Source: a virus
Lineage: Duplodnaviria > Caudoviricetes
Direction: 5' to 3' (one strand)
DNA: 54,016 nt
IMG/VR virus record: IMGVR_UViG_3300042332_001412
Location: 1-54,016 of that record
Positions 8,018 to 46,561 of this stretch are shown here, in pieces. A program made the translations under genes and the position numbers. A model generated the notes under the pieces. The model worked only from the letters and a program-made list of their open reading frames with translations, did not search any database and was not told the origin of the DNA. Position 1 is the stretch's first letter, and each line of letters opens with the position of its first letter.

Positions 8018-9694
8018 CTACCTATATTCCCACATGTACGCCATGTCTCCATATTCATCAGTATTCCATTTATTATCAGCAGCAGAAGTCCAATAATCTC
8101 CTTTATTATCTACAAATGTAGTTTCTGAATCTGTTAAGCCATCCAGTATAAAACCAAATGGAGCCATATCCTGCTCAATAGCCTCTCTTTGATCTTCAAA
8201 AATTCTTTTTCTAACATCATTTGAAGTAAGCTCCCTAAAATAAGGTTGAGTTGATAGCCAAGAGAAAATAACTAGACACATTGCCAAGTCATCATTGCAA
8301 CCTTCTTCTGCCGAAAAGGTATCACTTTTTTGAATAAAAGTTGTGAGTTCACTAATAATATCGTAGTCAGGTATTAATAATTTATCATCTTCAATCATTG
8401 CTTTCAAGTTGGCACAACCATATTTCTTAACTGCCTTGGTCATTTTGACTCCAAGTTGTGCCTTATTGGAGAATCCAGTTCCAACAATCTGTCCTGCACG
8501 ACCCTTCATTGCACACATAAGAAGATTATCATATTCAAGATCAAATTGAAGAATATCAGCTACCTGCCCTCCAATGTCATTAACCTCTACTAGGACATTT
8601 GAATTGTTATAACTTCTACCTACAGTATCAATGATATTTGGGAATAAAATAGGTTTGATTTCGTTATTTTTATATTTTGCAACTAACTTATATGGAATTG
8701 TAGTTACATCCATAACAGTAAATGCAGAGTAGTCATTTCCAACACCTCTTGCCACATCCACAGTCATTACATAATCATGACCTTCTATCGGATCTTCATA
8801 TACATCTAATCCTGCACTTCTCTTCAATGGATCATCATAGACCATTGTACGAAGTTTATTAGGATTGATTAAAGTATCAACAGATCCCAGGAAGGTACAT
8901 TCAAATTCCTGCTCAAACTGTCTTTGAGAAGTGTTTGAAATAGTTTCTTCTTTCCACTTCTGGTCTCTTCCTGGAACATCCCACCAATTAACTTCCAATG
9001 GTGTGTAACTGTTCTTTCCTCGTTCTGCATCGTGCCAGAACTTATAGAACATGTTCATTCCATTTGGAGTGGAAATGATAATAACTTTGGTAGTCTTACC
9101 AGATGAAATAGTGGGATATACAGAACTGAAAAACTGTTCTGCAATATGGTTTGGAATGAATGCAAATTCGTCCAGGAAGATGATGTTAAAAGAGTTTCCT
9201 CGGACAGCAGATGATGAGGTAGAAGCAGCAATAATCTTGGATCCGTTCTCTAGCTCCAGTGATCCACGGTTCCAAGAACCCACGCCCTGCTGTAGCCATT
9301 TAGGTAGGTTTTCGTATGATAACTGCAATCTGGATAGAAGTTCCCTTGAGGTCTCTGCTTTGTTTGCAAGAATTGCGATTTTTACATTTGGATTGAACAA
9401 AGCATAATGTAACAGATAGGAAACAACCGTAGTTGATTTTCCAGTCTGTCTTGGAAGCTTTGCGATATTAAATCTATGCCTATGAAAATTGTCAATCAAT
9501 TTTTCTTGGAAGTCCCACATTTTAAATGGGACTAGACCATCATCAAGAGAAACAATTTTGATGTATTTTTTTGCAAAGTAGATTGGATCTTCTTGGCACT
9601 TCAAATACTCTTCTAGCTGTTCAGAAGTAAATTGAATCTGAACATTGGAAGGTTTGAGATTAGGATTACCCTTATAACTAGATCTTTCACTCAT
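8018..9694 (-). CDS. gp17: Terminase large subunit (gp17-like)
   Basis: Walker A PRQTGKST, Walker B IIFLDEFAF, ISTPNG; nuclease motifs VDVARG..D and DDLAM. Confidence 0.98.
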   Translation of the reverse strand: MSERSSYKGNPNLKPSNVQIQFTSEQLEEYLKCQEDPIYFAKKYIKIVSLDDGLVPFKMWDFQEKLIDNFHRHRFNIAKLPRQTGKSTTVVSYLLHYALFNPNVKIAILANKAETSRELLSRLQLSYENLPKWLQQGVGSWNRGSLELENGSKIIAASTSSSAVRGNSFNIIFLDEFAFIPNHIAEQFFSSVYPTISSGKTTKVIIISTPNGMNMFYKFWHDAERGKNSYTPLEVNWWDVPGRDQKWKEETISNTSQRQFEQEFECTFLGSVDTLINPNKLRTMVYDDPLKRSAGLDVYEDPIEGHDYVMTVDVARGVGNDYSAFTVMDVTTIPYKLVAKYKNNEIKPILFPNIIDTVGRSYNNSNVLVEVNDIGGQVADILQFDLEYDNLLMCAMKGRAGQIVGTGFSNKAQLGVKMTKAVKKYGCANLKAMIEDDKLLIPDYDIISELTTFIQKSDTFSAEEGCNDDLAMCLVIFSWLSTQPYFRELTSNDVRKRIFEDQREAIEQDMAPFGFILDGLTDSETTFVDNKGDYWTSAADNKWNTDEYGDMAYMWEYR

Positions 9695-37099: not shown

Positions 37100-37423
37100 T
37101 TAGTTCACGAATAGGTTTGTGGGAACAGGTAATATTGTACGAGGAGTTGCTGGATTTGTCAAGTCCCCCACATGGGCTGATGGGCGTCCATTAACAAAGA
37201 CCTTACTTGGGGCAATGATAGTTCTCGCTAATGGGGGACAAAAGGTATCTTTACAAACTGGAAAGCCTGGTGCAGGAGTCAAAACATCACCTGCTTTGGC
37301 TCTAGGACGACCTTGGGAGAAAACTGTAGCTACAATAGGAGTAACTACATTTTGTGGATAAACACAACAAGGTCTAAAAGAAACTGAATCTGGATTTCCT
37401 AAAGCTGCAATTGGTCTAGTCAT
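37100..37423 (-). CDS. PAAR-domain spike tip protein (gp5.4-like)
   Basis: RPIAALG, TVFSQGRPRAKAGD and KVFVNGRPSAHVGD repeats, with Cys/His residues. Confidence 0.88.
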   Translation of the reverse strand: MTRPIAALGNPDSVSFRPCCVYPQNVVTPIVATVFSQGRPRAKAGDVLTPAPGFPVCKDTFCPPLARTIIAPSKVFVNGRPSAHVGDLTNPATPRTILPVPTNLFVN

Positions 37424-40400
37424 AGTACATTTTTGTTTTGAATTTCTACTGGCCAGTATTGAGACAAGTAATTGTTTTTTTGATAACTATGACTTACAAA
37501 TGTACTACCTTCAAATGGAACAAGAATACTTCCAAATAAGTAAACTTCTCCAGATTCATTAGTTCCAGAGCCATCTGCAGTAGCCTTAAATACGGTTCCT
37601 ACTCGATAGCCTTCTGGAGCACCATACTGCTTCCAATCCACATTTCCAAGTGTCTTAATTATATAGGTGATGTCAGATTCAATGAAACCAGAGTTTGAAG
37701 AATCTTCAAATGTATATGTTGTATCGAACATTTGTCTGGTACAACCTAAAAATTCAGTTTCTGTTTTATCCTTATAGTAAATAATTTCTTCTCCTAGGTA
37801 ATAATGTCTAAGAGTTTCATTTTTGGTTTCTAAATTTATTTCTTTTTTGATAATAAATTTTGGAATGATTAAATATCCAGATGAAATAAATTGACTGGTA
37901 TCATCTACTTTAATTGTATTATCTGTAGACTTTAACTCTTGAGTTAGCTTTGCATATGGAGGTTCATCCATAAATGGATTGCCTTTGTTTTTAACTGCAT
38001 TTGCAATTGTTCTACTTACTTCATTAACTCTAAAGTTCAGAACTTTTGGATATCCAGATTGATAATTTGTTCCATAAGGATCATTTGCAGTATTTGCTTC
38101 ACCATGCCAAATATATTGTGGTGCTGGTCCAGCTGCCCAAGATTTAGTACTTCCAACTGGAATGCCTGGAAGTACTGGAACTGCACCAAAAGGTTCTGCT
38201 TGTGTTGTAATACTGGTAACAAATCCATTGGAATCTTTATTTGTAACTATGAGAAGTCCATCCATTGGATTTATAGTTGGTCCAGTTTGACCTCCAGAGC
38301 TAGCATTGCCAGTCCATCTAGGAATAGACTTTAGTACAATAGTTATTCTATTTTCTTCAGTATCTGGAATTATATTGGAGTCACTAACAAAACTGAAGTC
38401 ATCAATTATGTATTCTAGTGATTTAAATCTTGGAGGAATACGATAACCAGTGAAAGTTTTATAAATTTTACCTGATTGGTCTTCTCCTTCGATAAGAGGA
38501 GGAAGATTTGGAATCGTTGTACTCTTTGGAACTGATAATTCAATAGTCTTTACGGCATTGATTAATATGTTCTGTAGAGAATTTTCGTTAGAAATGATGC
38601 GTTTATACATTTCTTCAGGAAGAACGATATTCGACATATTAAAACTTTCTTGCAGATTAGTAGTAATTCTGTTAGAAATCTCTTCTGCAGTGTATGCATC
38701 CGCACTTTTTACATCTATACACTCATCATATGATGGTTGTGTCTGTACTGGATTAAGATATTCGTTAAAAGTATCAATTTCTTGATATGGATAGTAGACT
38801 TTCGTGTAATCTGGAGTAATAGTATTGTCACATTCAACATCTTTTACGGATAACACAGTCTTATTATTGAGAATTGTCTTCTCAGAATCTACAATTTCGT
38901 TCTGTATCAGTAAGAAATTAGAACTTTTTAGCTTTGGAACCCACTTTTCGATCTCATCTTTGTCTGCAGGTCGCTGAAAATTGGTCCAAAAGATGCTATT
39001 GATCTCATATGCTTCATTATTTCCAGGACTTACGCACAAAAACTTCTCTTTTATACGAAAAGATCCGTCATTTAGTATCACATTCCCCAAAATATACTTT
39101 CCAGTAGCATCTTCAAGAGCGGAAGGCTCACAAAATGTATCTCTAGAATAGAATAATGGAGTATAAGTGTAGAATTTTTTGTCATTACTGATATAAACTC
39201 CGCAAACTGCGGAGCGATCTATAATTCCTTTGCCTGCAACAACCTTAATTCTGTTGCTGCCAAGAACTGCTTGACCTTGAACTCTAGTTACAGACCACCC
39301 ACGAACATATCCATTGTCTCTATTATCAAGTCTTCTAAACCAAACTCTAAAAGTTTTAGTATTTACGATGTCTATTTCAGAGACAAATGATTTTCTATTG
39401 ACTCCAGACGCAGTTTGATCATCTGTAATGGAGATCTGAATGTCATTTTTACTTGTAATTGTAGTTCCATCTAAGAAAGTTACTTCATAGTGCTTTCTAT
39501 TTGTGCTATCATCACTTCCACCAGAGTCATTTTGGCGTTTTGCTACAACTTTAATATCCTTGCTTGTGGTCAATTGTATGTTTTTGTTTTTATCATCATC
39601 AAAAACATGATAAATCGTACTTGTATACTGGGGTGTTGAAGGAATATTTTTTGCATAGTATGCATCCTTCGCAAAGTTTGCACTGCCTCCACTGATCTCA
39701 GCATAGCAAAGAATCTGATTTGAGATATTATTGACAAGATCTGTTTTTGTAAAAGCTACATTACGAACTTTTCTTCTATTTTTGTACTTTAATGGTCTAG
39801 ACAAAAAGATCTTTAGTCCTTGAATGTTTTCAACTACAGTATCAGGTTGAATGCCATAACCAGATACTTTATCTCCAATGTTAATAATTCTATCTTCGGC
39901 ACCATTATTATTGTTTACAAAGATGAAACCTGGAGTTTTGTTTTTATCTGATACTTTAGATACTCTTCTTCGTACTGTTTCGGTGGTGCGAACAGACTTT
40001 TCATTTAGATATTCTGAGTTATAGTTTACAACTTTATCAACAGTCCATCCATTGATAACATCACCAACAGCAATCATTTGTTTGTTGGTGGTATTTTCAT
40101 AGAAGAAAAAGATCTTATTATCAGTTGTGCCACCATGATACACAATGGCACCTTCTGGAACTCCTGTAACTTGACTATCAACTCTTGCTAGGTTTAAAGT
40201 ACCAGATACATCAACACTTTCAACTGCATAAGTTGGACATGAAACTTCACCACCTTCACTATTGGGCGGAGGAGGGGGAGGGGTAACTACAGTAATTCCT
40301 CCAGCTGGCCTAGAAGGTAAAGTATGACTTAATGGCCATTCAAAAATATGATAGAAGTATTGCTCATCATAAGATGCATCAGCTTTACAATATCTTCTAT

Positions 40401-40743
40401 AAACTGGACGAGATGTAATTAGGTCATCACTAGAGTTTACAATCTCGTATTCCTGTTGATAATAAATGGTATCAATAAAGTTTACAACATCTCCGTTGGC
40501 GTTCTCTGGATTGTTTAAATCTGGAACCTGAATTATGGACTTCTTTAGTTTCTCTTGCTTAGTTCCATTTATAATGGTCTTTCGGCCTTGATCAGGTGGC
40601 CTAACTTCAAACCAATATTTATCTATATACTCAAACTCCAGAGTAATTTTGGCTGGAAGCCCTTCCTCTGGAGGAGGACATTCATCATAAGTAAAAGTTA
40701 TTTTTCCATCAATAGGATCTTTTTTAGCACTACAATTTGACAT
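37420..40743 (-). CDS. Large hypothetical protein, probably tail/baseplate-associated (1107 aa)
   Basis: ATGA overlap with PAAR. Its C-terminal module (AKLTQELKSTDNTIKVDDTSQF..GY...EIIYYKDKT..FLGCTR) is shared with gp7. Confidence 0.75.
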   Translation of the reverse strand: MSNCSAKKDPIDGKITFTYDECPPPEEGLPAKITLEFEYIDKYWFEVRPPDQGRKTIINGTKQEKLKKSIIQVPDLNNPENANGDVVNFIDTIYYQQEYEIVNSSDDLITSRPVYRRYCKADASYDEQYFYHIFEWPLSHTLPSRPAGGITVVTPPPPPPNSEGGEVSCPTYAVESVDVSGTLNLARVDSQVTGVPEGAIVYHGGTTDNKIFFFYENTTNKQMIAVGDVINGWTVDKVVNYNSEYLNEKSVRTTETVRRRVSKVSDKNKTPGFIFVNNNNGAEDRIINIGDKVSGYGIQPDTVVENIQGLKIFLSRPLKYKNRRKVRNVAFTKTDLVNNISNQILCYAEISGGSANFAKDAYYAKNIPSTPQYTSTIYHVFDDDKNKNIQLTTSKDIKVVAKRQNDSGGSDDSTNRKHYEVTFLDGTTITSKNDIQISITDDQTASGVNRKSFVSEIDIVNTKTFRVWFRRLDNRDNGYVRGWSVTRVQGQAVLGSNRIKVVAGKGIIDRSAVCGVYISNDKKFYTYTPLFYSRDTFCEPSALEDATGKYILGNVILNDGSFRIKEKFLCVSPGNNEAYEINSIFWTNFQRPADKDEIEKWVPKLKSSNFLLIQNEIVDSEKTILNNKTVLSVKDVECDNTITPDYTKVYYPYQEIDTFNEYLNPVQTQPSYDECIDVKSADAYTAEEISNRITTNLQESFNMSNIVLPEEMYKRIISNENSLQNILINAVKTIELSVPKSTTIPNLPPLIEGEDQSGKIYKTFTGYRIPPRFKSLEYIIDDFSFVSDSNIIPDTEENRITIVLKSIPRWTGNASSGGQTGPTINPMDGLLIVTNKDSNGFVTSITTQAEPFGAVPVLPGIPVGSTKSWAAGPAPQYIWHGEANTANDPYGTNYQSGYPKVLNFRVNEVSRTIANAVKNKGNPFMDEPPYAKLTQELKSTDNTIKVDDTSQFISSGYLIIPKFIIKKEINLETKNETLRHYYLGEEIIYYKDKTETEFLGCTRQMFDTTYTFEDSSNSGFIESDITYIIKTLGNVDWKQYGAPEGYRVGTVFKATADGSGTNESGEVYLFGSILVPFEGSTFVSHSYQKNNYLSQYWPVEIQNKNVL

Positions 40744-40766
40744 ATTAATAAGAACGGATAAAGCTT

Positions 40767-40949
40767 TTAGTCTCCTACTTTATGTATGCGAATGCCAGGA
40801 GTATCGTGATGATCAAAGTACTCAAACTCTAAAGTGTCTCCCTCAATCCATTGCATCTCATCGAGGATCTCATCGGGGAAAGTAATGAAATATTCACCAG
40901 ATTTATTATCGTACTGTACTTCTGTGGTAAACGAAGAAAATGTAGACAT
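40767..40949 (-). CDS. Small AbrB/SpoVT-like protein
   Basis: EYFITFPDEILDEMQWIEGDTLEF matches the swapped-hairpin pattern I-x-x-P-x-x-I-x-x-x-x-x-x-x-EGD-x-L. Confidence 0.6.
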   Translation of the reverse strand: MSTFSSFTTEVQYDNKSGEYFITFPDEILDEMQWIEGDTLEFEYFDHHDTPGIRIHKVGD

Positions 40950-40976
40950 AGTTTGTATAATAGTTTACAGTATATA

Positions 40977-41102
40977 TCAATGTTTTTCAGAAATTTTTTT
41001 CTGGAAAAATTTTTCTGAGATTATTTGAAGTGTCTCTGAAAGACATAGGGCAATGTATGAAAATTGCTCTCGGAGACTTGTGTTTGTTGGGAGGGGGGTC
41101 AT
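40977..41102 (-). CDS. Possible small hypothetical protein (41 aa, MTPLPTNTSLREQFSYIALCL...)
   Basis: The C-terminal part of track ORF 40977-41333, read from the internal ATG at 41102; the upstream part of that ORF runs through regulatory repeats. Confidence 0.35.
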   Translation of the reverse strand: MTPLPTNTSLREQFSYIALCLSETLQIISEKFFQKKISEKH

Positions 41103-41233
41103 ATGGAGGGTGGTGGAGAGGCTTGGAGGGTGGTGGAAATTTTTTGAGTTGATTGAATATCTCTCTGGCTCGTTTGGTGCGGTATAGCTTTGAGGGACCC
41201 AACGATTTTCACGGCCCGGCGGGCCGGCGACCC

Positions 41234-41347
41234 ATAAGGCCCGCTTATACTGCCCTGCCCGACTGATCAGGACTGCTGATGGATCAGGAATGCTGATCTG
41301 TCTTGCCACTGGCTGATAAGCACTGCTGATCAATCAGGATTGCTGAT
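41234..41347. repeat. Cluster of five AT(A/C)AG-N5-CT(T/G)AT dyads
   Basis: Copies at 41234-48, 41266-80, 41283-97, 41316-30 and 41333-47; the last four form two pairs with 17-nt offset and 50-nt period. Confidence 0.85.
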
Positions 41348-41351
41348 GGAA

Positions 41352-41367
41352 GGGGGCCGAAGCCCCC
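41352..41367 (-). terminator. GC hairpin with a C(UUCG)G tetraloop downstream of the last early gene
   Basis: Minus strand GGGGGC-TTCG-GCCCCC; the U-tail is short (TTCC). Confidence 0.55.
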
Positions 41368-41378
41368 CTGGCTGCTGA

Positions 41379-41576
41379 TCACCAGCCTGTTTTTACTCGT
41401 TTGCCTGTCCAACTGGCAGCAGTAGCGTACTCAACAGCGAAGCGGTCAACATCCCACATGTTGGCCTTGGCCCGCTCAGCCGCACAGCGTGCCAGGTTGA
41501 TCTGATCAAACAAGTTAAGCTTTTTAGGTGCCCGATACAGGGTGCCAGCGGCTGAACAGATGGTGTGGTCGGTCAT
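41379..41576 (-). CDS. Hypothetical early protein (65 aa)
   Basis: Track ORF with a C/A-rich leader (CAACCACACCACACCAGCACCATG), bounded by hairpins on both sides. Confidence 0.7.
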   Translation of the reverse strand: MTDHTICSAAGTLYRAPKKLNLFDQINLARCAAERAKANMWDVDRFAVEYATAASWTGKRVKTGW

Positions 41577-41611
41577 GGTGCTGGTGTGGTGTGGTTGATC
41601 GGTGGAGGGAA

Positions 41612-41633
41612 GGGGCAGCCGTCAAGCTGCCCC
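41612..41633. other. Intergenic GC hairpin GGGGCAGC-N6-GCTGCCCC
   Basis: Perfect 8-bp stem between two early ORFs. Confidence 0.6.
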
Positions 41634-41640
41634 GTAGGGG

Positions 41641-41964
41641 TCAGACCGTGGCGTTGCGATCCTGGCTCCAATCCCGAAGCCTGCGAGTGCTGGCCTTGCT
41701 GAACACTCGGTTCCCGATGGTGCGGCCATCAGCCAGGGTGATTACAGAGCGCCCAGCGGCGTCAGCCGCTACCTGGAGGGCCTGGCGGCCCAAGCGGCGC
41801 TCAGCAGGCAGAGCGGTGGGGCTCTCCCACAGATCCAGCAGCCATTGGGCACGGTGGCGGCCAACCACACACTGGTGGCGGATGGTGACCTTGGCCACCG
41901 CAACGGCAACAGCGGTGGGGATGCTGGTACGGGTGAGGCGGTCAGAGCGGTTGGGGTTTGCCAT
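41641..41964 (-). CDS. Hypothetical basic early protein (probable start MANPNRSDRL, 107 aa)
   Basis: Track ORF 41641-42018. The internal ATG at 41964 is preferred because a -10 (TACAAT, 42007-12) lies downstream of the track start and AGGA precedes this ATG. Confidence 0.65.
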   Translation of the reverse strand: MANPNRSDRLTRTSIPTAVAVAVAKVTIRHQCVVGRHRAQWLLDLWESPTALPAERRLGRQALQVAADAAGRSVITLADGRTIGNRVFSKASTRRLRDWSQDRNATV

Positions 41965-42006
41965 GTTCCTGGTGGTGTGCGGGGTCCGTTTGCCCCGCTT
42001 GAAAGA

Positions 42007-42067
42007 ATTGTAGGCCATAGGGGGACCCTGGCTATGGGTCAGGCCCCGGATTGTTGCAAAGCTTAAT
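42007..42067 (-). promoter_or_regulatory. Class A early promoter: HLR1-like repeat, 39-nt spacer, -10 TACAAT
   Basis: ATTAAGCT-TT-GCAACAAT (42050-67); its TTAAGCTTTGCAACA core is identical to the copy at 42892-42906. Confidence 0.55.
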
Positions 42068-42069
42068 CT

Positions 42070-42828
42070 CTACACTTTGGCAGAGAGAATCGGCTGCAGT
42101 TCTTTACGATAGCCTCCGAACTTGCCAGCCTTGCGGCGTGCCCACAATGCTTTGCCGTAGGTTGAACCTTTAGGCTGGGTTGAATGCACAAGCAAAGCAA
42201 ACGGATTGTCACCGAAACAGTGGCTATCATCGTGATCAACCTCTAGGCCCAGAGCCTCAGCTTCCTCGTCATTGTGAACCACTTTACTATAGCGAGGGAA
42301 CAAACCTTCGTCGATCATGTGATCGAACTTGCCCCCATAGCTGGCGGTCATGTAGAAGTTAGAAGGCAACTCCAAACCTACAAACAGCGGCAGGTTCTTG
42401 CTGTAGCAGTAGAACTTAAGGTCGGGATTCAGCTTGGCAACCTCTAGCCAAGCAAGCAGATAAGCGAGGCTAAAGAAATCACCAGACTCGTGTATTCTCA
42501 CCAGCTCGATCCTTTTAGTGCGAGCATTCTGCAGGCTGGTGTTGATCAGCTCCACTGCAGTGCTGGCTTTGATCGCATCCACGATCAGCTGCAGGTTCCG
42601 AGCCCGAGCATAGAAAGGGCCATCGTATTGTGCCTCGCTGGTGGCAGCAAAGCACCGAAACTGGGTCTGTGGGCCGTCTTGAATGTGGCGCTTGCCGTTC
42701 TCACCAACAACAGCAAAGCTCAGGCAGAAAAGGGCACCGGGACAGGTCTTGCCTGCCGGCAAATTAAAGATCAGGGTTTGCTTGCCAAGCTTGGCGTTGC
42801 CGGTGGAGAAGGTCAGCAGATCAGACAT
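42070..42828 (-). CDS. GP88-family protein (Cys-containing, radical-SAM-like)
   Basis: GNAKL, FNLPAGKTCPGALFC, CFAA, RIHESGDFFS and FYCYSK motifs. Confidence 0.8.
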   Translation of the reverse strand: MSDLLTFSTGNAKLGKQTLIFNLPAGKTCPGALFCLSFAVVGENGKRHIQDGPQTQFRCFAATSEAQYDGPFYARARNLQLIVDAIKASTAVELINTSLQNARTKRIELVRIHESGDFFSLAYLLAWLEVAKLNPDLKFYCYSKNLPLFVGLELPSNFYMTASYGGKFDHMIDEGLFPRYSKVVHNDEEAEALGLEVDHDDSHCFGDNPFALLVHSTQPKGSTYGKALWARRKAGKFGGYRKELQPILSAKV

Positions 42829-42855
42829 GGGTCTGTGTCGGTTGGGGACTTGAGA

Positions 42856-42907
42856 ATCTTAGCAGGTGGGAAGGGCCAGGCTGGCTGGCCCTGTTGCAAA
42901 GCTTAAC
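42856..42907 (-). promoter_or_regulatory. Class A early promoter: HLR1-like repeat, 30-nt hairpin spacer, extended -10 TGcTAAGAT
   Basis: GTTAAGCT-TT-GCAACA, then exactly 30 nt to TAAGAT (42856-61). The 22-nt block at 42873-94 is identical to 43167-88. Confidence 0.65.
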
Positions 42908-42909
42908 GA

Positions 42910-43131
42910 TCAGGGTTCCATCAGCACTCGGCTAAAGGTCCAACCTATGGGCAGGTTGATAGAGCACCACTGCTCCGCCGCCCACTCTATGGTGGCATCG
43001 AAATCCTCATCGAGATCCTCAGGATCAACCTCAAGCTCAACCCAGAGGCTCCCGTTAGGGATCCAGCTTGTGCTGTCACGATCCGTGAAACACTCTAGGC
43101 AAACCTCGACAGTGGTGGTGGCCATGGCCAT
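42910..43131 (-). CDS. Small acidic hypothetical early protein (73 aa)
   Basis: Track ORF with its own promoter cassette; acidic stretch ELEVDPEDLDEDFD. Confidence 0.7.
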   Translation of the reverse strand: MAMATTTVEVCLECFTDRDSTSWIPNGSLWVELEVDPEDLDEDFDATIEWAAEQWCSINLPIGWTFSRVLMEP

Positions 43132-43149
43132 TCCGTTTGGGACCCCTTA

Positions 43150-43201
43150 ATCATACAGCACCGGATGGGCCAGGCTGGCTGGCCCTGTAACAACTTGAAA
43201 T
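43150..43201 (-). promoter_or_regulatory. Class A early promoter: HLR1-like repeat, 30-nt spacer, -10 TATGAT
   Basis: ATTTCAAG-TT-GTTACA, then exactly 30 nt to TATGAT (43150-55). Confidence 0.65.
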
Positions 43202-43203
43202 AA

Positions 43204-43368
43204 TTATATTTTCTTCAGGCAATTGTCGATAAAGGCAAACAGCTCGCCCAGATCTATGCTACAATGAACCCAGCGAACAGCAGAGCCATATTCAGCCAAG
43301 AATTCATCAGCAACTAAACATCCAGCAGCAAAGTCTAGGGCCTGGGTGTATGTCAGGGTCGGGTTCAT
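43204..43368 (-). CDS. Small hypothetical early protein (54 aa)
   Basis: Not in the track: MNPTLTYTQALDFAAGCLVADEFLAEYGSAVRWVHCSIDLGELFAFIDNCLKKI; it fills the gap between two promoter cassettes and has the leader CAACCACACCAATG. Confidence 0.7.
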   Translation of the reverse strand: MNPTLTYTQALDFAAGCLVADEFLAEYGSAVRWVHCSIDLGELFAFIDNCLKKI

Positions 43369-43392
43369 TGGTGTGGTTGCAAGTGCCTGTTG

Positions 43393-43444
43393 ATCCTACA
43401 GCAATGGGTGAGCCCGAAGACTCACCCATGTAACATTATGTAAT
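43393..43444 (-). promoter_or_regulatory. Class A early promoter: near-consensus HLR1 repeat, 30-nt UUCG-hairpin spacer, -10 TAGGAT
   Basis: ATTACATA-AT-GTTACATG (43427-44); the spacer is TGGGTGAGTC-TTCG-GGCTCACCCA; the -10 is at 43393-98. Confidence 0.7.
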
Positions 43445-43446
43445 AT

Positions 43447-43641
43447 CTACATCTCCAGCTGCCAATCCTGGTCTTTAAGTATATTTACCCAGAAAAAGTT
43501 TCGTCCATTCATACTACGCAGGAACAATCTATCACCTACATGTTGCTCAACAATACAATGTTCGCATGATTCCATTAGATTAGCGAACCTGTTTTTGGCC
43601 TTTTTGGAAATAGGCTTGACGGTGATTGTGGTGTTAATCAT
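43447..43641 (-). CDS. Hypothetical early protein (64 aa)
   Basis: VKPISKKAKNRFANLM...VEQ...FFWV; extended -10 TGcTAAAAT at 43671-79 upstream. Confidence 0.8.
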   Translation of the reverse strand: MINTTITVKPISKKAKNRFANLMESCEHCIVEQHVGDRLFLRSMNGRNFFWVNILKDQDWQLEM

Positions 43642-43726
43642 GACATGTTAGAGTAATTTTCTCTTCACTGATTTTAGCACAGTGAGAAAGGCCAGAACGA
43701 ACAGAAGCTCAATTGTCACAATCTGT

Positions 43727-43778
43727 TATAGTTAATAATTTGGTGGGGAGTTGCCTCCCCGTGTATAGTTAATAATTT
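43727..43778. repeat. 15-bp direct repeats TATAGTTAATAATTT flanking a GNRA hairpin
   Basis: Repeats at 43727-41 and 43764-78; the hairpin at 43745-60 reads GGGGAG-GCAA-CTCCCC on the minus strand. Confidence 0.8.
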
Positions 43779-44040
43779 AGACGGTAACAGTTACTAATTC
43801 TTCAGTCTTTCGGCCATCAGCAATGGTAGAACCAATGCTAACATCTTTCAGCATCTGATCATTAGTAAGCAAATCACTCAGGAATTGTGCATAAGACTCA
43901 CTACATGTGAATGCATATGCTTTGTCTACATTACTGTGATAAGTGATAATAATATCAGTATTGTCTACAGTAATGGAATGAATAGCACTGGACTGTTCTT
44001 TAGTAAACTGACGGTGAACAGGAGAGATTGCAACGGTCAT
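43777..44040 (-). CDS. Hypothetical early protein, weakly KTSC-like (probable start MTVAISP, 87 aa)
   Basis: The track start at 44100 is the TTG of the -35 box, so the ATG at 44040 is preferred; SSAIHSI...Y.F...SIG pattern. Confidence 0.7.
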   Translation of the reverse strand: MTVAISPVHRQFTKEQSSAIHSITVDNTDIIITYHSNVDKAYAFTCSESYAQFLSDLLTNDQMLKDVSIGSTIADGRKTEELVTVTV

Positions 44041-44658: not shown

Positions 44659-44714
44659 AGTATGGCATGGGTTGGGGGCTGGTGTCAACCCCCTGACTGA
44701 TTAGGGTTGCTTAT
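44659..44714 (-). promoter_or_regulatory. Class C early promoter: LysR-type dyad, 11 nt, TTGACA-N18-CATACT
   Basis: Dyad ATTAGggttgCTTAT at 44700-14 (plus-strand reading), -35 at 44683-88 and -10 at 44659-64. Confidence 0.7.
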
Positions 44715-44899
44715 CAATCCTCCAGCAGTTCGGGATTGTATTCTTCAACCTCTGTAATCAATTCTTCATCAGAATAGGAAGAAAGATTGTCAATCAAAGT
44801 ATCATAAACCATACGCTCCATAGTCTTCATGTCCATACCATCAATAATCTGCTGAACATAGGTTTCAATCAGCGAATCACGGTCAAAGGTGTTAGTCAT
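44714..44899 (-). CDS. Small acidic early protein (probable start MTNTFDRDSL, 61 aa)
   Basis: Track ORF 44714-44920; the ATG at 44899 follows the shared leader GTTCACTTCTGAACCACTC; YVQQIIDGMDMKT...YNPELLED. Confidence 0.8.
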   Translation of the reverse strand: MTNTFDRDSLIETYVQQIIDGMDMKTMERMVYDTLIDNLSSYSDEELITEVEEYNPELLED

Positions 44900-44924
44900 G
44901 AGTGGTTCAGAAGTGAACATTAAT

Positions 44925-45943: not shown

Positions 45944-46561
45944 TTACACATATTCATACTTACCATTCCGCATCACTTCTATCCACCTATTCAATCCTTC
46001 AATAACTCTTTGATCTGTTTCTTGTGGTAGATAATAATCTTCTAGAATAGCTATTTTCTTCTTCAAATATGCCTGATGTGCTTCTTCTGGTGTATAATAA
46101 TATCCAGCAGAGATAAACTTTCTATTCAAACTAACTCGTGATTGATATTCTTTATTCCTATGTTTGTTTCCTGTATGACGAATCACACCAATAGGATACT
46201 CAGTAGTAGCTACTTTTTTATAAGAGAAGAACATGTTCAATGAAGAACTTACAAAGATACAAGTATCTGGTCCATAGACTTTATTACCAGGATATAATAT
46301 ATCTTTGTCTAACTGTTTACCTGTTACATCACCTTGTTGCAAATACCATTTTTTGAAATTAGAGAATGTATGCCATTCTGGTGCAACACTACACCCAATA
46401 TATGATGGGCGACGCTGTAAATAGCAAGTATTATAACATCTTGCTAACATACTTTTCCATACACTATAAATTTTACATTCTACATATTTTCCATTGGCTC
46501 TTGATGTAACTACATAATCAGCATCATTGATGCCTACTCCATATAAAAGTGATTTTGCCAT
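45944..46561 (-). CDS. HNH-type (homing) endonuclease with an AP2-like C-terminus
   Basis: YGVGINDADY, WKSMLARCY, YIGCSVAPEWHTFSNFKKW, QLDKDIL.PGNKVYGPDTCIFV and GYYYTPEEAHQAY. Confidence 0.85.
   Translation of the reverse strand: MAKSLLYGVGINDADYVVTSRANGKYVECKIYSVWKSMLARCYNTCYLQRRPSYIGCSVAPEWHTFSNFKKWYLQQGDVTGKQLDKDILYPGNKVYGPDTCIFVSSSLNMFFSYKKVATTEYPIGVIRHTGNKHRNKEYQSRVSLNRKFISAGYYYTPEEAHQAYLKKKIAILEDYYLPQETDQRVIEGLNRWIEVMRNGKYEYV

Follow-up and report, generated by a model that had tools for sequence, protein, structure and literature searches.

Hairpin-containing units between the small genes of a T4-like cyanomyovirus fragment, probable gene-linker cassettes of the PeSL kind

The DNA analysed here, called the window throughout, is the entire 54,016-base virus record IMGVR_UViG_3300042332_001412, the completeness of which is estimated at 30%. 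Four sites on its minus strand, between positions 43444 and 42007, fill the short intervals from the stop codon of one gene to the ATG of the next, and each of them is composed of an upstream module, a GC-rich hairpin and a -10-like box. We consider it likely that these sites are composite gene-linker cassettes, of the same kind as the PeSLs of T4-type phages, in a hyperplastic small-gene region of a T4-like cyanomyovirus. The architecture recurs in related viruses and is specific to the gene strand, the module is held at a rigid distance of 30 ± 1 nucleotides (nt) from the box, and the gains, losses and replacements of genes between relatives break inside the units.

Structure of the four intergenic units

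An earlier note on this DNA had described four consecutive promoters, each built on an 18-nt direct repeat followed by a TAnnAT box and devoid of TTGACA. The four 18-mers lie on the minus strand as that note had read them, and the boxes TAGGAT, TATGAT, TAAGAT and TACAAT of sites 1-4 follow the second hexamer after exactly 30, 30, 30 and 39 nt. The absence of TTGACA was likewise confirmed in all four intervals between stop codon and ATG. What had been overlooked is that the gap is filled in each site by a GC-rich hairpin, which starts right after the ..ACA that ends the module or 4 nt after it, and which ends 5-11 nt before the -10 box, over the place of a -35. The order within a unit is stop codon, upstream module, hairpin, -10 box, leader and ATG, and the preceding open reading frame (ORF) has, in every one of the four, a stop codon that begins 21 nt before the end of the ..ACA. 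Sites 1-3 contain a -10 only, with no -35/-10 pair about 17 nt apart of the sigma-70-like early promoter type, and site 4 has a weak -35-like match (TAGCCA-16-TACAAT, 9/12).

Site 1 stands behind an ORF of 64 amino acids (aa), whose stop codon TAG is at 43449-43447. Its module ATTACATAATGTTACATG (43444-43427) is followed by the hairpin GGGTGAGTCTTCGGGCTCACCC (43427-43406; 9 pairs, UUCG loop, -15.7 kcal/mol as RNA), the box TAGGAT (43393-43398) and the ATG of a 54-aa ORF (43368-43366). This ORF ends with the TAA at 43206-43204, where site 2 continues with the module ATTTCAAGTTGTTACAGG (43201-43184), the hairpin GGGCCAGCCAGCCTGGCCC (43185-43167), the box TATGAT (43150-43155) and the ATG of a 73-aa ORF (43131-43129). 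The same 19-nt hairpin GGGCCAGCCAGCCTGGCCC recurs in site 3 (42891-42873); it is present twice, with 0 occurrences expected from 100 shuffles. Site 3 further comprises the stop codon TGA (42912-42910), the module GTTAAGCTTTGCAACAGG (42907-42890), the box TAAGAT (42856-42861), which is preceded by TGC, and the ATG of a GP88-family gene (42828-42826). Site 4 begins at the stop codon TAG of the GP88 gene (42072-42070) and consists of the module ATTAAGCTTTGCAACAAT (42067-42050), the imperfect hairpin GGGGCCTGACCCATAGCCAGGGTCCCC (GGGGCCTG..GGGTCCCC; 42047-42021; -11.0 kcal/mol) and the box TACAAT (42007-42012), 39 nt after GCAACA. A 15-mer, TTAAGCTTTGCAACA, is common to sites 3 and 4.

The family of units in related viruses

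Related loci were collected from viral contigs, 80 of them through homologues of GP88 and 80 more through the 64-aa ORF that precedes site 1; where individual loci have to be told apart, they are given L numbers. In the 80 GP88 loci, both upstream of GP88 and between many neighbouring small genes, the layout is repeated: the module ends in ..ACA and is followed by a GC hairpin, after which come 4-11 nt, a box of the form TAnnnT, one of the conserved leaders AGTCAACCAC.., AGTTCACACC.. or AAGCGGG..CCCGC, and an ATG. In the cultured phage S-SRM01 (L083), the GP88 homologue is preceded by GTGACAATTTATTAAGTGTCACAA and a hairpin, with TATACT 10 nt further on.

A matrix applied to all 381 loosely defined units was uninformative, with many matches within genes, and the analysis was then restricted to GGG..CCC stems. 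Strict units, defined by such a stem together with TAnnnT, number 206 on the gene strand versus 75 on the other. When the box was not required, 214 of 365 hairpins on the gene strand were followed by TAnnnT, starting 4-13 nt after the last C and peaking sharply at 6-11 nt; the corresponding count on the opposite strand is 75 of 262, with no peak. The box has the form TAnnnT with T at position 6, the commonest versions being TATACT, TAGGAT, TACACT and TACAAT. In the window itself, the intergenic units of hairpin plus TAnnnT on the gene strand are concentrated at 42.8-45.0 kb.

The consensus of 77 distinct homologous modules is tGTGACAgTcTga.AA(c/g)TGGCACA, in which the regular expression fixed the last seven positions but imposed nothing on the left half, TGTGACA (-24 to -18). 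At its two ends the module carries TGTnACA heptamers, 17 bp apart and of approximate two-fold symmetry, and the family form can be written TGTGACA-N10-TGGCACA.

Spacing between module and box

To score the spacing, 82 units were taken in which the module terminates in TGnCACA or TGTTACA no more than 3 nt from the stem. In 79 of these, the module contains the upstream stop codon, mostly at 14 or 21-22 nt before the module end. Between ..ACA and the box, 70 of the 82 units have 29-31 nt, nine have 34-37 nt and three have 24-25 nt. When the tails between hairpin and box were permuted among the units (5000 trials), the share at 29-31 nt averaged 47% and did not exceed 60%, versus the 85% observed. 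The hairpin cores measure 14-27 nt and the tails 4-13 nt, and the two lengths compensate each other (r = -0.64 over the 82 units); in 124 units without the module, the correlation between core and tail length is r = -0.10. The picture is unchanged when a single unit is kept per distinct hairpin (67 units), and among nine further orthologues of site 1, inspected by hand, a distance of 29-30 nt is kept despite different stems in the six that were counted.

Module and box are coupled at a fixed B-form distance, which is the strongest point for the structural idea of the earlier note. Its proposal that the promoters consist of a -10 without -35 plus an upstream element at constant spacing is supported by comparison, through the strand bias and the 30 ± 1-nt compensation; the naming of that element as HLR1, treated below, is not. 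A cruciform model, in which extrusion of the hairpin would bring GTTACA to the distance of a -35, was also considered and rejected: the total distance is constant although the hairpin varies over the full range of core lengths, and therefore the distance after extrusion would vary.

Recombination junctions within the units

The locus L004 shares about 92% identity with the window over 46.0-41.6 kb, but gene-sized insertions and deletions (indels) separate the two. L004 lacks the 73-aa ORF (42910-43131, minus strand) that lies between sites 2 and 3, and its junction is a hybrid in which a crossover within the hairpin that the two sites share leads from the 5' part of site 2 into the 3' part of site 3. 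At site 4, L004 has an additional gene of about 350 nt with TTGCAACAAnCCGGG on both flanks. It also lacks the DUF7326 gene (44714-44920), and here the crossover lies in CAGGGGGTTGAC of two -35-bearing hairpins. Other replacements start and stop at the hairpins 41633-41612, 41367-41352 and 41226-41212.

In total, 11 of 14 junction ends fall inside units (nine of ten in the comparison with L004, two of four in that with L003), and the units cover, by a rough estimate, about one-seventh of that 5 kb. The three crossovers that were read base by base are situated in a hairpin, at a module-hairpin border and at a -35-bearing stem. Their places in the unit differ, and each crossover lies within a stretch of local identity, as homologous recombination would predict. 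A 151-nt contig of one public RNA run (X2) joins 41608, in a hairpin tail, to 42861, in the site 3 box; it is a single contig and weak as evidence. The hybrid junctions suggest that the small genes travel together with their own signals.

The module compared with HLR1 and NtcA sites

The earlier note had taken the modules for HLR1, bound in an activating position by the host regulator RpaB, and the genes for a set switched by the light or redox status of the host. As an explanation of the four modules this is unlikely. Agreement was scored as the number of mismatches to (G/T)TTACA(T/A)(T/A)-N2-(G/T)TTACA(T/A)(T/A), and not with the published weight matrix. Only site 1 fits this consensus, with 2 mismatches, both at outer positions, and only four 18-mers of the window score as well. 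Sites 2, 3 and 4 have 5, 7 and 6 mismatches, levels that are equalled or bettered by 1.6%, 14% and 5.4% of all 18-mers in the window. No enrichment of HLR1 was found in the window either, with 56 matches at up to 3 mismatches versus 58.5 expected, and site 1 is the only one of the four sites among them. Of the 206 related cassettes, three have at most 3 mismatches, and two of these are site 1 and its orthologue in L003. At up to 4 mismatches, the number rises to 12 (5.8%) versus 1.3% of random 34-mers, and this mild enrichment of weak matches speaks for RpaB.

Further support for RpaB comes from the near-consensus match of site 1 itself, which is kept in the orthologues of L003/L084, L085 and L086, and from its position. 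If transcription starts 7 nt after the box, the 18-mer would be centred at about -49.5, in agreement with activating HLR1 sites, which peak at about -51 in Synechocystis according to the available text of a study that also reports HLR1 occurrences in cyanophage genomes (PMC6525291). The orthologues point the other way. Nine distinct orthologues of site 1, from loci fetched through the 64-aa gene, have the form ATT(T/A)C(A/G)-N3-TGT(T/A)AC(A/G), and site 2 of the window and its copy in L003 have the same form (ATTWCR-N3-TGTWACA). In six of the nine aligned orthologues, the first TTACA has T rather than A as its fourth base, and the 3' element TGTWACA is a palindrome, being its own reverse complement. 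The 77 modules behind the consensus give the symmetric TGTnACA ends and no 10-bp direct repeat, and at the corresponding position behind the same gene, other contigs carry TGTGCCA..TGGCACA..TGTCCAC. Because only three of the 206 units come within 3 mismatches, and because the orthologues and the family consensus differ from it, HLR1 is not a conserved feature of the units. At most, site 1 and its closest orthologues are possible RpaB sites.

In NtcA class II promoters, the box GTA-N8-TAC is centred near -41.5 and takes the place of the -35. No exact GTA-N8-TAC is present in any of the four sites, and NtcA was rejected as a candidate. Site 1 contains TTA-N8-TAC, with one mismatch to the NtcA box, which would be centred near -50, and such one-mismatch sites occur at 6.1 per kb in the window.

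Genomic context and further elements

All long ORFs of the window are on the minus strand. Among the 27 ORFs scanned against PHROGs, matches were obtained to T4-type head, portal, sheath, tube, terminase and baseplate families, and the best matches of the capsid protein are from Synechococcus myoviruses, at 67-72% identity. By these matches, the window is a fragment of a T4-like cyanomyovirus. Upstream of the baseplate module, small ORFs follow one another at 40.7-45.6 kb, and the cassette units sit between them. S-SRM01 has the same gene order of small genes followed by the baseplate wedge. When 40-46 kb was compared with the phage collection by megablast, no match was obtained.

Pfam matches were obtained for two of 16 scanned products, the DUF7326 protein (44714-44920) and the GP88-family product. 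The gene of the latter (42070-42828, minus strand; 252 aa; PF17338, E 4.2e-43) lies between sites 3 and 4, and the N-terminal part of the product has Cys at 29, 35 and 59. The G + C content is 0.47-0.48 at 40-44 kb (40001-44000) versus 0.28-0.37 over 2-40 kb, and the small-gene block of higher G + C may derive from phages of higher G + C, e.g., the relatives L012-L082. Neither Pfam nor PHROGs gave a match for an ORF of 1107 aa at 37420-40743, between the small-gene block and the PAAR/baseplate genes. An HNH endonuclease gene (45944-46561; phrog_953, E 1.6e-79) borders the cassette run on its upstream side, and in S-SRM01 HNH genes likewise adjoin the GP88 region. The small-gene block of S-SRM01 includes, at 9106-9471 and 680-1378, genes annotated as a cAMP phosphodiesterase and an AbrB/MazE/SpoVT DNA-binding protein; the latter protein is a possible candidate for the reader of the modules.

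Directly behind the site 4 box lies a leader hairpin, GCGGGGCAAACGGACCCCGC (41979-41998, minus strand), which can be written AAGC-GGGGCAAACGGACCCC-GC. The relatives L003, L004, L007, L010 and L013 have other stems at this place (GCGGGCCGAGAGGTGCCCGC, GCGGGCCGATCGGTGCCCGC), and because the stems differ at the same position, the hairpin may be a 5'-terminal stabilising stem. The ORF at 41641-42018 has its first ATG (42018) upstream of the site 4 box, and this ATG is missing in L004. As it precedes the -10, the likelier start is the in-frame ATG at 41964-41962, which gives 107 instead of 125 aa.

A second, palindromic module was seen directly before hairpins that carry TTGACA (TGATTAGTATTACTAATCAATCA, TGATAAGCAACCCTAATCAGTCA; 44982-44960, 44716-44694 and about 45240-45222), and this second class is probably what the earlier note had called its LysR class. 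The hairpin GGGGCAGCTTGACGGCTGCCCC, in the region 41633-41560, has TTGACG in its loop and is followed by no TAnnnT box in the window; in L003 and L004, TACAAT stands at this place. A replacement junction lies immediately behind the hairpin. Repeats were also recorded as tandem ATCAGCAnTCCTGATC-like copies at 41345-41262, as ATTATTAACTATA on both sides of the hairpin 43760-43745 (43790-43725), and as a 42-nt tandem repeat with TATACAGTATATACTTAATAAT at 45876-45793.

Proposed function and alternative explanations

As a terminator-promoter linker, a unit would bring together the AT-rich module ending in ..ACA, the GC-rich hairpin, a short tail, a -10 without -35 and a short leader. The -10 box would start transcription of the next gene with the host RNA polymerase, and the module, at about -43 to -66, would be read by a sequence-specific protein that stands in for the missing -35 contact. 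That the module acts as a UP-like contact is less likely, and the main-family module is not an A/T tract. The hairpin, which occupies the -35 position, would serve to terminate the preceding gene's transcript or to protect it, and the short identities between units would let homologous recombination move genes plus their own control signals. T4-like cyanophages are not known to have the MotA/AsiA system.

An extension of the RpaB proposal would make the modules operators for several host signal regulators, set three helical turns from the -10. RpaB would read ATTWCA-N4-GTTACA at sites 1-2 and other factors would read TGTGACA-N10-TGGCACA and the palindromic TGATTAG..CTAATCA, so that the shuffled early genes would be gated by host light, redox or nutrients, with the terminator of the previous gene inside the gap; we hold this to be improbable. 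It is very unlikely that the units contain no promoters at all and that the genes are co-transcribed from upstream, the hairpins serving as RNA structures for exonuclease stop or processing and TAnnAT as an AU-rich cleavage site or spacer. The stability of the four hairpins (-11 to -15.7 kcal/mol), the missing -35 and the short leaders all fit such RNA units, as does one cassette of the window (L, hairpin 41633-41612) that has lost its box and is still followed by a gene. However, a module held 30 ± 1 nt from the box at any hairpin length is hard to explain in this way. The TAnnnT form with its T at position 6 argues against RNA units too, as do the presence of TTGAC within the hairpin in 28 of the 206 family units, the TTGAC(A/C) lying 18 nt from the box in the window units C-F, and the search of Rfam over 39-50 kb, which matched no family at E up to 1.

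The most improbable of these accounts is that the units are target sites of a site-specific recombinase, comparable to the attC sites of integrons, and that their geometry reflects the recombinase and not transcription. The gene-sized indels are indeed bounded by units, the stop codon is embedded at a fixed place in the module, and the authors of the PeSL work themselves raise a possible recombinase acting on the GGGG..CCCC stem in the available part of their text (PMC2839356). Against this, the three crossovers occupy different positions of the unit, each within local identity. Moreover, no integrase-like match was found among the 16 ORFs scanned with Pfam and the 27 scanned with PHROGs, the small ORFs being only partly covered, and the sole nuclease seen is the HNH endonuclease at 45944-46561.

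Several observations weigh against the reading of the units as PeSL-kind cassettes. Site 4, with its gap of 39 nt, is off the geometry. In the published PeSL, as described in the available text, a full -35/N17/-10 promoter has the stem-loop just upstream (PMC4122927), whereas the four units have no -35 and their hairpin is nested between module and -10. The counts from relatives come from a scan that demanded TAnnnT and from modules whose last seven positions were set by the regular expression, and because the loci are related by descent and were gathered through two genes, they do not represent independent events. The 8 nt after the four hairpins contain only 2-4 T, and at least five T follow the hairpin in only 46 of the 206 family members; therefore, the hairpins are not canonical intrinsic terminators. 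In a context of 66-73 nt, the RNA folding of sites 2-4 is no better than that of shuffles (z = -1.3, -1.6 and +0.5, respectively). Six public RNA runs matched, with shares of 0.05-0.15 of the stretch, and the four that were compared show variant joints but no starts or ends of transcripts; as these runs consist of contigs only, promoter and terminator activity rests on consensus and analogy.

How early genes are started and how genes are exchanged in hyperplastic regions is poorly known for T4-like cyanophages. The units offer a precise layout, namely, module, length-compensated 30-nt gap with a hairpin, and -10, which at least one cultured phage (S-SRM01) also has. Should the module be read by a protein, the identity of that protein would decide whether the host or the phage times dozens of small genes of unknown function. 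The more striking claim, that the light-sensing pathway gates these genes directly through RpaB, finds no support at three of the four sites.

Comparison with known systems

Descriptions of cyanophage early promoters, start sites and hairpin motifs were searched for this layout and none was found in that literature; in the genome paper of S-SRM01, the words promoter, terminator, stem-loop, hairpin, motif and intergenic are all missing. Promoters with HLR1 and RpaB, as far as they are described in the available text of Riediger et al. (2019, PMC6525291), resemble the units in the missing -35, in the upstream element centred near -50 and, for site 1, in the near-consensus sequence. They differ in that three of the four sites and the modules of the relatives have no HLR1 match, and in that the spacer of the units holds a hairpin.

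Within the window, the neighbouring units with hairpins at 44959-44937, 44693-44674, 44446-44426 and 44104-44084 are alike in standing between small genes, in a hairpin-to-box distance of 6-8 nt and in coinciding with indel junctions. Unlike the four sites, these units at 44.08-44.96 kb have a hairpin that contains TTGAC(A/C) at 18 nt from TACATT or CATACT, and two of them carry the different palindromic module (TGATTAGTATTACTAATCAATCA and TGATAAGCAACCCTAATCAGTCA, respectively).

PeSLs are the intergenic promoter and stem-loop cassettes of the hyperplastic regions of T4-type phages; they were described for RB49/phi1, T4/PST and KVP40/nt-1 (Arbiol et al. 2010, PMC2839356; Comeau et al. 2014, PMC4122927). 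According to the available text of these two papers, they act as promoters and terminators in reporter assays and mediate modular shuffling and the formation of mini-circles. They are called sparse in cyanophage S-PM2 in the accessible part of a further paper (PMC4503421). The units of the window share with PeSLs the location between small genes of hyperplastic regions, a stem-loop of the GGGG..CCCC type, a host-type -10, an AT-rich upstream part and a short leader, and in both cases indels and replacements between close relatives break in units. A sequence-specific module at a fixed, length-compensated gap of 30 nt sets the present units apart. Promoter, terminator and mini-circle activity has been measured for PeSLs and is putative for the units of the window. 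The closest known kind is the PeSL, and the units are best described as a cyanophage variant of PeSL-type cassettes in which the hairpin is nested inside a promoter without a -35.

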